A DNA stretch of 64,000 nt, taken from the NCBI GenBank assembly GCA_965279375.1, contig OZ257156.1:576001-640000 (forward strand). Reading direction: 5' to 3'. The position numbers and the translations under genes are program-made. Positions 32,549 through 59,090 of this stretch are shown here, piece by piece (the first letter of the stretch is position 1; each line of letters starts with the position of its first letter). The notes under the pieces were generated by a model. The model saw nothing but the letters and a program-made list of their open reading frames with translations. It was not told the origin of the DNA and did no database searches. This stretch comes from Gemmatimonas sp. (GTDB taxonomy: Bacteria > Gemmatimonadota > Gemmatimonadetes > Gemmatimonadales > Gemmatimonadaceae).

Positions 32549-33928
32549 ATGGACCAATCGAATCGATACGCCGACCTGACCCTCGCCGAAGCAGAGCTCA
32601 TCGCTGGTGGCGAGCACATTCTCGCGGCATACAAGATGAAGCCCAAAGCCGGACACGGATATCTGGAGGCTGCAGCGCACTTCGCGGCGGAGTCCTCCAC
32701 CGGCACCAATGTCGAAGTCTCCACCACCGACGATTTCACGCGCGGTGTGGACGCGCTCGTCTATCATATCGATGAAGCCACGGAAGAGTTGCGCATCGCC
32801 TACCCGCTCGCGCTCTTCGACCGCAACATGACCGATGGGCGCATGATGCTGGTGTCGTTTCTCACGCTCGCTGTGGGCAACAATCAGGGCATGGGCGATA
32901 TCGAGCACGCCAAGCTCTACGACTTCTGGGTGCCGCCGCGCGCGCTGCAGCTTTTCGACGGGCCCGCCAAGGACATCTCCGATCTCTGGCGCGTGCTGGG
33001 ACGCCCGGTGCAGGACGGAGGCTACATCTCCGGCACGATCATCAAGCCAAAGCTTGGGCTGCGTCCGGAACCGTTCGCCGAAGCAGCGTACCAGTTCTGG
33101 CTGGGCGGCGACTTCATCAAGAACGATGAGCCGCAGGGAAATCAGGTCTTCTCGCCCATGCGCAAGGTGATCCCGCTGGTGGCCGACGCGATGCGACGCG
33201 CGATGGACGAAACGGGACAGGCCAAGCTCTTCTCGGCCAACATCACCGCCGACGATCACTACGAGATGTGCGCGCGCGCCGATTTCATTCTCGAGACGTT
33301 CGGCGACGATGCCAACAAGGTGGCGTTTCTGGTGGACGGCTTTGTGGGTGGACCAGGGATGATCACGACCGCACGACGCCAGTACCCTAACCAGTACTTG
33401 CACTACCATCGGGCCGGTCACGGCATGGTGACGTCGCCGAGTGCCAAGCGCGGCTATGATGCGTATGTGCTCGCCAAGATGGCGCGGCTGCAGGGTGCGT
33501 CGGGCATTCACGTAGGGACGATGGGCTTCGGCAAGATGGAGGGCGCCAACGACGATCGCGCGATCGCCTACATCATCGAGCGCGACGACTACCAGGGGCC
33601 AGCCTTCCGTCAGCAGTGGTTGGGCATGAAGCCCACGACGCCGATCATCTCCGGCGGCATGAATGCGCTGCGCCTGCCGGGATTCTTTGCGAACCTGGGT
33701 CACGGCAACGTGATCACTACAGCAGGCGGCGGCGCGTACGGCCATCTTGATTCACCGGCCGCAGGCGCGATTTCGCTGCGGCAGGCGTATGAATGCTGGA
33801 AGGCCGGCGCGAACCCGATCGAGTGGGCACGCAGCCACCGCGAGTTCGCCCGTGCGTTCGAGTCCTTCCCGCACGACGCGGACCAGCTCTACCCGGGATG
33901 GCGCGCTCAACTCGGCGTCAGCGGCTGA
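32549..33928 (+). CDS. cbbM: ribulose-1,5-bisphosphate carboxylase/oxygenase form II
   Basis: [11 protein letters not shown]-terminus, [38 protein letters not shown] (carbamylated Lys motif), [28 protein letters not shown]; no small-subunit gene adjacent. Confidence 0.98.
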
Positions 33929-33956
33929 TTGCCAACGGCTAATTGCCAACGGCTGA
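33922..33956 (+). repeat. 14-bp tandem repeat x2.5 spanning the cbbM stop
   Basis: CGGCTGATTGCCAA CGGCTAATTGCCAA CGGCTGA. Confidence 0.8.
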
Positions 33957-33986
33957 CCCTTTCACCAGACACGTCACCACACACGC

Positions 33987-56398: not shown

Positions 56399-57123
56399 TG
56401 CTGCGTCGAGAGCCAGCGTCGCAATCGTGTGGCCACGTCGGGGGGAATCACTTCGGACAGCCCGTCAAGGAGCGCGTTCGCTCGCTCAATGTCGCCCGAC
56501 CTTGCGGTCAGCGCCACCGCGTTCTGCGCGGCCTGTTCGATGCGCTTCGCGCCGCTGTCGTCGTGCTCGGCCTCCCGCAACAGCATGACCAGCGCCTCCA
56601 GCGTGGTCTTCGCCGCCGTCGCATCGTCTCCTTCGCGTTCAAACACGCCCGCCTGCAGGAGTTTGAAGAGTGCGACAGCCGACGGTGCGTCGAGCTGTGT
56701 GGCAATCGTGAGTCCGTCGGCCACGCGCGCGGCTGGGTATGGGCCAGTCGCACTCACAATGTCGTCGTAGCAACGAAAGAGCTCGAGCACGCGCGCACGA
56801 TCAGGCGCCTCGTCGAGAAACGCGTGCACCGCCGCGTACCGCTCGGGCGACGCCGCACCCGCGCCCCGGAAATCCTCGATGAGCAGATACACCGCCTCGG
56901 CCTCTTCATAGGAGATGCCGCCATACGGTGGCGATCCACCGACAGACCAGAGCAGCTGCGTGAACGACGCCTCGTCGTCCGCGAGCATGCTGCGCAGCAG
57001 CCAGTGCGGCCAGGGCATCGACGTTTCGTCCGTCTCGCTGCTCCCCGCTTCGCTTGATGCACTGTCGGATGCGTTGTCGGATGCGTTGCCAGAGCTGTGA
57101 TCAGAAGTGCTGTCGGCCGACAT
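56395..57123 (-). CDS. hypothetical acidic alpha-helical protein
   Basis: GGAGG upstream of the ATG; stop overlaps the start of the CHAT gene; Ser/Asp-rich N-terminus. Confidence 0.65.
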   Translation of the reverse strand: MSADSTSDHSSGNASDNASDSASSEAGSSETDETSMPWPHWLLRSMLADDEASFTQLLWSVGGSPPYGGISYEEAEAVYLLIEDFRGAGAASPERYAAVHAFLDEAPDRARVLELFRCYDDIVSATGPYPAARVADGLTIATQLDAPSAVALFKLLQAGVFEREGDDATAAKTTLEALVMLLREAEHDDSGAKRIEQAAQNAVALTARSGDIERANALLDGLSEVIPPDVATRLRRWLSTQH

Positions 57124-57398
57124 GAATACCTCCGGACGCGGGGACGCACAGCATCGCAGCAAGACTGCCGCAGGATGCAGGACTTCCGCACCACTTTATG
57201 CGCCATTGCGCAGAGCACAAGCGCGTCGATCCTTTCGATCCGGTCAATCGATGCTTCAGCTCGCTGGCCGCTGTGCGAACTCAGGGATTTCCCCATCACG
57301 AACTGGGGAGTTCCCTTATCCCGAGCAACCGAGCACGAAGGAAAGTTCTCCGACAGCAAGCATCGTCCTTTCCTTGACCGTCTCGTCGGAGCCTCCGC

Positions 57399-59090
57399 AT
57401 GCGCATTCTCCTCATCCACCCGAACTACCACTCCGGCGGCGCGGAGATCGCGGGTAATTGGCCACCTGCATGGGTGGCATATCTGGCCGGTGCACTCAAG
57501 GGCAACGGTTACACGGATATCCGGTTCATCGACGCGATGACCGATCATATCGACGACGCGGCGCTGGAAGGAATTCTGCGCGAGGAGAAGCCGGATCTCG
57601 TACTCTGCACGGCGATCACCCCGGCTATCTACAAGGCGCAGTCGACGATGGCGCTGGTCAAGCGCCTGCACCCGAATGCGGTGACGGTACTCGGCGGCAT
57701 CCACGGCACGTTCATGTACGGTCAGGTGCTGACCGAGACGCCTGATATCGACTACATCATTCGCGGCGAAGGCGAGGAGATTCTCGTCAACTTCGTGAAC
57801 GCGTTGAGTGCGGGGCGCCTGACCCAAGAACGCGCGAGCATCAAGGGGATCGCGTATCTCGAAAACGGCATCCCCACTGCGACGCCGGCACACCCGCCGA
57901 TCCAGGATCTCGACTCGCTCAAGCCCGACTGGAGCATCCTGAACTGGGATCGGTACATCTATATCCCGCTCAACTGCCGAGTGGCGATCCCCAACTTTGC
58001 GCGCGGCTGCCCGTTCACCTGCAGCTTCTGCTCGCAGTGGAAGTTCTGGCGTCAGTATCGCACGCGCGATCCGAAGAAGTTCGTGGACGAAATCGAAGTG
58101 CTGGTGAAGCAGCATAACGTCGGATTCTTCATTCTTGCCGACGAAGAGCCGACGATCAATCGCAAGAAGTTCGTCGAGCTGTGCGAGGAGCTGATCAAAC
58201 GCGACCTGGGCATCAAGTGGGGCATCAACACCCGCGTGACGGACATCCTGCGCGATGAAGAATTGCTGCCGCTCTATCGCAAGGCTGGCCTCGTGCACGT
58301 GTCGCTCGGCACAGAGGCGGCGGCGCAGCTCAAGCTCGATCGCTTCAACAAGGAGATCAAGGTCGAGCAGAGCAAGAAGGCGATCGCACTGCTGCGCGCG
58401 AACGGCATCGTGACGGAGGCGCAGTTCATCGTCGGCCTCGAGAACGAGACACCGGAGACGCTCGAAGAGACGTACAAGATGGCGCTCGACTGGAAGCCCG
58501 ATCTGGTCAACTGGAACTGCTACACACCGTGGCCCTTCAGCGATCTGTTCCAGGAGCTGGGCGACAAGGTCGAAGTGCGCGACTACGCCAAGTACAACTT
58601 CGTCACGCCGATCATTCAGCCGGACGCGATGACGCGCGATGAAGTGCTCAAGGGCGTGCTCAACAACTATCGCCGCTTCTACTTCAAGAAGGCGACGTGG
58701 GGCTACTTGTGGGACAAGGACGCCTACCGACAGAAGTATCTGCGCGGCTGCCTCAAGGCCTACATGAAGAGTGCGATGGAGCGGCGCTTCTACGACCTCG
58801 GCCGCATCAACTACTGGGGTCAGAGCACAGTGGACTGGAAGTTCGATGAGTCAAAGACCACCAGCAAGGAAGAGCTGATCCGCCTGCGACAGAAGCGCGA
58901 GATCCAGCACGTGCGCGTGGAAGGCGGTCACCAGAGCGGACAACGCACGGAGTTGCCGATGATCGCGATGGGCGGACACAACCTGCCTGCCGACGAATTC
59001 ATCGCGCCGAAGCGCTCGCGGTTGGTGGCCGATGGTACGCCACCACTCGACGATACGGAGAAGTCTCACGAGCCCATTCGAGCCTGCTGA
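57399..59090 (+). CDS. bchE: anaerobic Mg-protoporphyrin IX monomethyl ester cyclase (B12-binding radical SAM)
   Basis: [49 protein letters not shown] (CxxxCxxC), [23 protein letters not shown]. Confidence 0.96.

Follow-up and report, generated by a model that had tools for sequence, protein, structure and literature searches.

A form II Calvin cycle operon in a Gemmatimonas genome with a photosynthesis gene cluster, and orphan cbbF genes in its relatives

Results

The operon and its proteins

The window, a 64,000-nucleotide stretch of a genome deposited as Gemmatimonas sp. (assembly GCA_965279375.1, contig OZ257156.1, forward-strand positions 576,001 to 640,000), carries a Calvin cycle operon, cbbM-cbbF-prk, and, further downstream, the cyclase gene bchE. 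The main features, in window coordinates, are:

31935..32447, minus strand: anchor gene; small, probably exported, divergent from cbbM; marks the chromosomal site of the operon
32549..33928, plus strand: cbbM, form II RuBisCO (the carboxylase/oxygenase of ribulose 1,5-bisphosphate), 459 residues; NF010002 (NCBIfam), 887 bits, cut-off 489
33987..35060, plus strand: cbbF, class 1 fructose-1,6-bisphosphatase (FBPase) of the proteobacterial CbbF type; NF006779, 509 bits, cut-off 349
35144..36022 (true open reading frame), plus strand: prk (cbbP), proteobacterial-type phosphoribulokinase (PRK), 292 residues; NF011997, 499 bits, cut-off 362
57399..59090, plus strand: bchE, O2-independent Mg-protoporphyrin monomethyl ester cyclase; TIGR02026, 780 bits, cut-off 481; outside the photosynthesis cluster

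The frames of all four enzyme genes are open and their scores exceed the family cut-offs, which bears out an earlier note on this DNA that had called the three cbb genes intact. The best match of CbbM in the PDB is 5c2c, a Form II RubisCO, to which it was aligned; it clusters with form II enzymes in a tree, and all nine active-site motifs sought (among them the carbamylated Lys in KxDE, KPK, HR, the loop-6 Lys and SGG) are present. CbbM is the sole RuBisCO-family match in the genome and the next gene is cbbF, consistent with an enzyme that needs neither a small subunit nor a form I large subunit. Ribulose 1,5-bisphosphate (RuBP) carboxylase activity is predicted. CbbM is 81–87% identical to beta- and gammaproteobacterial enzymes, and the G+C content at third codon positions (GC3) of cbbM, cbbF and prk, about 0.80, is near that of host genes.

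CbbF shares 48–49% identity with the housekeeping fbp product of the same genome (C1:3.557 Mb; C1 is the host contig). Since many of its close matches carry the Joint Genome Institute name FBPase/SBPase, CbbF is predicted to act also as a sedoheptulose-1,7-bisphosphatase (SBPase), a candidate activity. Prk, which adjoins the RuBisCO module, has the Rhodobacter sphaeroides type as its closest structure (PDB 1a7j, E 4.5e-126, vs. 2.5e-10 or worse for other PRK types). Across three genera CbbM is 86–91% and Prk 83–90% identical.

Host genome and assembly

The window's genome (G000) is one closed contig of 5.31 Mb, 99.95% complete and 0.95% contaminated. Its RpoB is 77% identical to that of a Gemmatimonadaceae genome vs. 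45–55% to those of two proteobacteria, and both Gemmatimonadaceae genomes are placed in one family; the host is thus Gemmatimonadaceae by sequence, as the earlier note had supposed at the level of the phylum from gene content. PufM scores 725 bits to PDB 9h19 and 694 bits to 7o0u, which we take to be Gemmatimonas complexes, vs. 520 bits for the next chain, and among the homologues of window proteins that bear species or genus names are those of Gemmatimonas groenlandica and Gemmatimonas sp.; the host thus probably belongs to Gemmatimonas.

Reaction-centre genes, for which a search had been proposed, lie in a photosynthesis cluster at C1:3.085–3.131 Mb with the Gemmatimonas layout, acsF standing between bchFNBHLM and lhaA-puh; profile hidden Markov models confirm pufL, pufM, pufC, pufA, acsF, bchN, bchX and bchY there. 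The micro-oxic profile anticipated by the same note is also present: besides BchE the genome encodes HemN and BchJ (C1:1.08 Mb), a cbb3 oxidase and a class II (B12-dependent) ribonucleotide reductase, the oxidases being of cbb3, aa3 and bd-like (a CydA-like protein) types. BchE, HemN and the class II reductase would permit anoxic phototrophic growth.

The assembly was checked against four public sequencing runs of one sample, which is probably the source of G000 and hence not independent. Each run assembles to 0.6–1.05 million contigs; G000 is therefore likely a metagenome assembly. Run contigs covering window positions 27666–35978 and 35949–46500 show zero differences; they overlap by 30 bases only, and therefore neither bridges the joint by the rule of the tool. 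Run depths on the cbb contig (8.2, 30.4, 20.5 and 10.6) resemble those of a core locus 2.4 Mb away (6.5, 23.3, 22.0 and 9.3). An independent congener, G109, has the identical order anchor-cbbM-cbbF-prk-ligase, and the locus is for this reason not mis-assembled, which answers the chimerism check that had been called for.

The transaldolase gene of G000 (C1:3046329–3047491) is frameshifted by a one-base homopolymer deletion; contigs of the four runs carry the base, and other pseudogene calls in G000 may therefore be assembly errors too. Nearly all tRNA genes and both rRNA operons lie at 2.36–5.03 Mb, with a single tRNA gene within the first 1.77 Mb.

An orphan cbbF marks the site across the genus

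A second FBPase, of the CbbF type, is found in 31 of 87 genus genomes; it is 67–79% identical to the window copy, vs. 46–50% for the housekeeping enzyme. Four of these genomes are G000, G109, G015 (with prk) and G010 (with a form I operon), and the remaining 27, with neither cbbM nor prk, carry cbbF as an orphan. The anchor gene adjoins cbbM in G000, G109, G019, G242 and G369, and in many relatives lacking cbbM it is followed directly by the CbbF-type FBPase: the orphan stands directly beside the anchor in 20 of the 27 genomes and within 5.5 kb in four, and is not placeable in three. Three orphan genomes are single contigs (G066, G067 and G074), and 24 of the 27 have pufLM. In G066, G085, G088 and G035 the order dehydratase-anchor-cbbF-ligase is that of G109 minus cbbM and prk. 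At the DNA level, cbbF of G109 matches the orphans of G088, G014 and G105 with 85–86% identity, a value that holds uniformly over the length of the gene and resembles that of the flanking core genes. This genus-wide scar had been overlooked by the earlier note.

The anchor gene itself has no Pfam match and only unnamed clusters in the Atlas; those of its homologues that bear names are Gemmatimonadota. It is near-core, present as a single copy in 75 of 87 genus genomes, which rules it out as a cbb-specific partner.

A C-terminal tail distinguishes operon from orphan copies of CbbF:

35007..35057, plus strand: CbbF C-terminal tail, residues 341–357, motif PLFxxRGL; in operon copies, not in orphans

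The motif is present in all eight operon copies and in none of the 25 orphans tested. Across 116 of the 120 top matches, aligned after setting aside P0153, P0154 and P0181 (which have no such motif) and P0214 (which is longer), its six specified residues do not vary. Alignments with solved FBPases end at about residue 338 of CbbF, and the tail has a predicted local distance difference test score below 50 in a monomer model. The tail may be an element for docking or specificity that is required in the Calvin cycle alone. A literature search found no paper on a CbbF C-terminal extension.

Distribution of cbbM, prk, bchE and pufLM

Among the 87 genus genomes, cbbM occurs in four (G000, G019, G094 and G109), prk in six (G000, G019, G109, G015, G010 and G023), pufLM in 57 and bchE in 18. 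The three other cbbM congeners, G109, G019 and G094, are 92–96% complete; G019 and G094 are fragmented into 340–350 contigs. Of 401 family genomes drawn evenly, 15 had form I RuBisCO above its cut-off, and form II was found in six. Eight form II genomes were found in the family all told; all eight have bchE and six have pufL/M matches. By comparison, 18 of 87 genus genomes overall carry bchE, and a Fisher test of cbbM against bchE gives p 0.0014; since kin are not independent, this association is not proof. G353, G369 and G409 carry both forms of RuBisCO, and G292 was ruled out as a form II genome because its C6 matches are form I-like fragments. In the family member G244, the form I genes rbcL-rbcS-cbbX (C11:318270–325019) are separated from pufLM by roughly 4 kb, which puts them within or next to the photosynthesis cluster. 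G073 (C7), like G094 and G019, has bchE with no pufLM or bchY match, reflecting either missing contigs or partial loss of the photosystem.

The distance of 21.4 kb between prk and bchE agrees with the earlier estimate of about 21 kb and has no significance of its own: the cbb genes and bchE lie on different contigs in G109, and the genes between them in G000 are unrelated. The nearness is thus incidental; the co-occurrence of cbbM and bchE within genomes is not.

BchE contains B12-binding and radical SAM domains and the CxxxCxxC motif. Congeners hold two bchE types, 62–68% and 76–83% identical to BchE of G000. In G000 no bchE precedes the hemN-bchJ pair (C1:1081241–1083321), whereas in most congeners the arrangement is bchE-hemN(-bchJ) and the bchE is of a different type; the stand-alone bchE of G000 looks like a replacement. 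It is followed after 18 bp by a PhyH-like dioxygenase-fold gene (window 59109–60221, plus strand) that has a 33% identical paralogue at C1:2.50 Mb and was not found beside bchE in 17 congener loci.

Phylogeny of the operon

The CbbM and PRK phylogenies that the earlier note had recommended were built. In the CbbM tree, with references drawn from 16 of the collection's 64 parts, one clade (Shimodaira–Hasegawa-like approximate likelihood ratio, SH-aLRT, 99) unites the eight family sequences among 79 rows that are mostly proteobacterial, and its subgroups match the host genera. In the Prk tree, the form II-linked enzymes (12 labelled rows) form a clade (98) that holds no named proteobacterium and stands next to Burkholderiales. 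The CbbF tree, which leaves out unnamed rows, the frameshifted G028 copy and the partial G068 copy, unites G000, G109 and 25 orphans at 99/97, whereas a family-wide clade reaches only 70/96. First trees of Prk and CbbF, with only cbbM-linked references, had overstated family monophyly; closer Burkholderiales rows brought CbbF to the latter value. CbbF distances track RpoB distances over 19 genus genomes (Spearman 0.71; none of 2000 permutations as high), and the intact module is found in two other genera, in one of them beside the same anchor.

The Prk proteins of G010 and G023, and the CbbF of G010, group apart from the form II-linked lineage, which rules these genomes out as members of it and marks a separate gain. 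The form I operon of G010 reads rbcL-rbcS-cbbX-cbbF-prk (contig C313), and the G023 Prk is on C452. The form II-linked clade also takes in P0271, a phosphoribulokinase named as Gemmatimonas sp. and encoded on a contig of 4.79 Mb, whose near-complete genome may be a further carrier of the operon. A form II RuBisCO 85% identical to the window CbbM lies on an uncultured Mycobacterium contig, possibly mis-binned or another transfer.

The rest of the cycle, electron donors and sinks

Searches for the remaining cycle enzymes and for electron-donor systems, also suggested earlier, succeeded in part. Transketolase, GAPDH, TPI, Rpe and RpiB score above NCBIfam cut-offs in G000, and PGK gives a 525-bit match with 43% identity to E. 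coli Pgk; RuBisCO, PRK, PGK, GAPDH, TPI, FBPase, transketolase, Rpe and Rpi thus appear to be encoded, judged by homology. The aldolase step is less clear-cut. No homologue of CbbA, FbaA, FbaB or GatY was found by tblastn in G000, and a PF01791 search returned only a DeoC-like protein. The sole candidate is a divergent, 471-residue class II aldolase-family protein (PF01116, 46.7 bits, above the Pfam cut-off; C1:3051353–3052768, after pgi) that belongs to no NCBIfam family and is present in all five genomes searched (G000 and four of four other family genomes). Transaldolase is present once the assembly indel is set aside, and a broken transaldolase as a gap in the cycle is ruled out by the base carried in the contigs of all four runs. 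No match to the activase CbbQ/CbbO was found in G000 and no CbbR, the best LysR-type match being 29% identical to CbbR and not assigned to CbbR by the NCBIfam models. Also encoded are PEP carboxylase, a beta-carbonic anhydrase and a glcDEF set that resembles glycolate oxidase.

Of the donor systems, one NiFe hydrogenase was found, with small and large subunits and maturation genes, at C1:1.76–1.78 Mb. Its large subunit scores 884 bits to PDB 7uus/7utd, which we take to be the M. smegmatis Huc enzyme of group 2a, vs. 212 bits for the next entry, and is group 2a-like. Hydrogenase was also matched in G015 and G242; no match was found in G109, G019 or G094. Motif scans of G000 gave no Sox, Dsr or CoxL motif, and sulfide:quinone reductase was checked by motif and a list of FAD proteins only. 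As for alternative sinks, the nitrogenase motif occurs only in bchL and bchX, NarG, NorB and NosZ have no match at E 1e-5, and NapA has only a weak match, to an ActB/QrcB-like protein.

Neighboring genes

Two genes downstream of prk are of note:

36019..36690, plus strand: spermidine-synthase-like methyltransferase-fold gene; weak NF002956 match; its GTG start overlaps the prk stop
37560..39470, minus strand: PrpE/Acs-like acyl-CoA ligase; resident of the flank, outside the cbb module

The first was not seen at this position in G109, G242, G369, G353 or G409 and is not a conserved part of the module. The ligase, 1.5 kb from prk as previously stated, had been called prpE and taken to hint at growth on propionate. 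Its best matches are indeed PrpE models (NF007815 and TIGR02316), whose cut-offs it does not reach (738 of 955 and 714 of 827 bits); it is below the AcsA cut-off too. The propionate argument finds no support here, because relatives that have neither cbbM nor prk carry this ligase at the same place; it is near the anchor in the cbbM-less genomes G065, G066, G067, G085, G088 and G035. No PrpB or PrpD of the methylcitrate pathway was matched in G000; methylmalonyl-CoA mutase homologues are present.

An Rfam scan of the window matched nothing, and a search for FNR and PpsR boxes upstream of cbbM, bchE and hemN gave only two matches, each with three mismatches. Between prk and bchE, window positions 48045–57162 hold two large CHAT-domain proteins (48045–51122, plus; 52430–56398, minus) that flank an extracytoplasmic function (ECF) sigma factor (51804–52433, minus), with a probable anti-sigma gene at 51058–51903 (minus), a putative caspase-like protease/ECF signalling block. 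The product of 43089–44354 (plus) combines an N-terminus that by eye resembles TIR with a membrane-spanning segment and, at its C-terminus, a domain like that of formylglycine-generating enzyme.

Discussion

Role of the operon

On balance, and with moderate confidence, we favor a role in which the operon runs the Calvin cycle as an electron sink and for CO2 recapture in low-oxygen photoheterotrophy. In light and at little O2, cyclic electron flow would give ATP while oxidation of organic substrates would leave surplus NADH. PRK and RuBisCO would make 3-phosphoglycerate, on which housekeeping PGK and GAPDH would spend ATP and NADH, and CbbF, transketolase, the divergent class II aldolase (or transaldolase), Rpe and RpiB would regenerate ribulose 5-phosphate. 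H2 entering through the group 2a-like hydrogenase would add electrons, amounting to mixotrophy. This role is preferred because cbbM and bchE occur together, the searches turned up no alternative sink, and cbbM is retained in congeners that have no hydrogenase match. A role of this kind has been modelled for purple non-sulfur bacteria, which on many substrates need the Calvin cycle for redox balance (PMC3203349).

Facultative photolithoautotrophy, in which hydrogenase feeds H2 electrons to the quinone pool, light-driven proton-motive force powers reverse electron flow via complex I and the Calvin cycle supplies all cell carbon, is a serious though unlikely contender. G000 has the hydrogenase with its maturation genes and the strong match to 7uus/7utd, candidates for the full cycle, beta-carbonic anhydrase and PEP carboxylase, and H2 stimulated the growth of carbon-fixing strains bearing this enzyme (PMC7784904). 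The same class of hydrogenase, however, occurs in the heterotrophic G. aurantiaca and is described as linked to aerobic respiration (PMC7784904); neither an activase nor CbbR was found, nor any Sox, Dsr or CoxL motif in the scans. Lithoautotrophy cannot be the shared reason for keeping cbbM, since none of the three other cbbM congeners has a NiFe-hydrogenase match. Less probable again is a light-independent, microaerobic mixotrophy, with CO2 recapture and redox balance serving O2-limited respiration and phototrophy and bchE merely sharing the low-oxygen niche. The three oxidase types of G000 would suit it, as would G019 and G094, which combine cbbM and bchE with no pufLM match, and the 36.7% of wastewater metagenome-assembled genomes (MAGs) with form II vs. 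only 16.3% with puf genes (PMC10581226). Against it, pufLM is present in six of the eight form II genomes, the remaining two being fragmented assemblies that retain bch genes, and the ATP cost of CO2 fixation is cheapest to meet with light.

That the operon is a dormant relic heading for loss, as in most congeners, seems improbable: the missing regulator and activase and the 27 congeners that already lost cbbM and prk would fit, whereas the open frames, the high identities across three genera, the host-like GC3 and the retained CbbF tail would not. Mis-assembly or a proteobacterial host can be practically discounted; the proteobacterial affinity of CbbM and at least one assembly indel would point that way, and against them stand the closed, nearly complete contig, the run contigs without difference and with core-like depths (one sample), and the RpoB and family placement, the idea being effectively refuted by synteny in independent genomes such as G109.

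History of the operon

The simplest reading of the orphan pattern suggests a Calvin operon in the genus ancestor that was repeatedly lost. Its source may have been a Burkholderiales-like betaproteobacterium; once at this site in the ancestor, cbbM and prk would have been lost repeatedly with cbbF retained. PRK without RuBisCO piles up RuBP, and paired loss of the two genes is expected for that reason.

Several observations weigh against the proposed role or a simple history. The phototrophic Gemmatimonas in culture need aerobic or semi-aerobic conditions or grow under them (PMC11406998), and when O2 is at hand respiration disposes of the electrons. G000 has no CbbR, CbbQ/O or CbbA homologue, and because CbbA is missing the aldolase step rests on the divergent protein, with a predicted activity on fructose and sedoheptulose bisphosphates. 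Two form II genomes, G019 and G094, show no pufLM or bchY match and only bchNB-like hits. The RpoB tree, built with FastTree from this one gene and 74 rows, places G109 deep within a subclade of 12 species that bear orphans, where strict vertical loss would have required five or more independent double deletions. Again at odds with strictly vertical descent, the codon at which the gene stops is common to several orphans, and the upstream junction of G035 recurs in G066, a member of a different subclade. These features point either to recombination that exchanged intact and reduced alleles or to numerous losses in parallel; under either route the operon appears to be old in the genus.

A further-reaching account is one that we hold somewhat more readily than its alternatives: the last common Gemmatimonas ancestor would have been a low-oxygen, CO2-fixing phototroph with cbbM-cbbF-prk at this site and bchE, and the present-day photoheterotrophic members would be secondary losers bearing a tail-clipped cbbF as a scar, while intact and reduced alleles may still be exchanged. 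G000 would be a holdout with the ability to grow like a purple non-sulfur bacterium although it is no proteobacterium, and the invariant CbbF tail a Calvin-specific docking or specificity element.

Relation to known systems

CO2-fixing phototrophic Gemmatimonadota, which the earlier note implied to be new, are in part already on record, with form I published and form II published for wastewater MAGs (PMC6748926, PMC10581226). Soda-lake MAGs combine form IC RuBisCO, PRK and a reaction centre (PMC6748926; PMC7844134). Such form IC phototrophs from soda lakes and wastewater (PMC6748926; PMC10581226; PMC7844134) resemble G000 in having a type II reaction centre with RuBisCO and PRK of proteobacterial origin, and CO2 fixation is predicted in both; their rbcL-rbcS is form I, traced to Alphaproteobacteria, and they belong to another order. 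In contrast, G000 has form II with a Burkholderiales-like cbbF-prk, tied to bchE, within the family of the cultured phototrophs. The wastewater form II MAGs share both form and phylum with G000, and some carry both forms, as do G353, G369 and G409; in the available text photoautotrophic potential is tied to form I only, and no operon structure, bchE link or orphan cbbF is given (PMC10581226). In the mainly open-access literature covered (including PMC8547001, PMC8779627, PMC9426454, PMC10576062, PMC11406998 and PMC7784904, as available), no report was found of a form II operon in phototrophic Gemmatimonas or of an orphan cbbF. The headline idea is thus partly known, and the new parts are the link of form II to bchE and the genus-wide cbbF scar.

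With the form II cycle of purple non-sulfur bacteria (Rhodospirillum rubrum, the cbbII operon of Rhodobacter sphaeroides, Rhodopseudomonas palustris) G000 shares form II RuBisCO, PRK of the 1a7j type, CbbF, BchE/BchJ/HemN, a type II reaction centre and a probable redox-balancing role. It differs in its three-gene module without cbbR, cbbA, cbbT, cbbG or cbbQ/O, in having no nitrogenase that could be found, and in its phylum. Gemmatimonas phototrophica and G. groenlandica have the same layout of the photosynthesis gene cluster as G000 (PMC7844134). Since bchE and hemN are known from G. phototrophica as well, bchE by itself is no novelty; the only RuBisCO-like protein of that species is form IV and it has no prkB, and G. 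groenlandica has no RuBisCO homologue (PMC7844134). In the Rhodobacter-Rhodobaca group, too, photoheterotrophs are read as reduced descendants of CO2-fixing phototrophs (PMC5553392); in the genus of G000, unlike that group, a physical operon remnant marks the loss at one site, in many species and in another phylum.

Zeng et al. (2021) did not decide whether the phylum inherited carbon fixation from its ancestor or acquired it later (PMC7844134). Phototrophic Gemmatimonas serve as a model of how photosynthesis is acquired through distant gene transfer, and the cultured ones are all described as photoheterotrophs. An operon scar in about one-third of the species of one genus, together with a few intact copies, provides a genus-level handle on the ancestry of CO2 fixation. 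The pattern points to loss of CO2 fixation along with low-oxygen genes, the route proposed for aerobic anoxygenic phototrophs.

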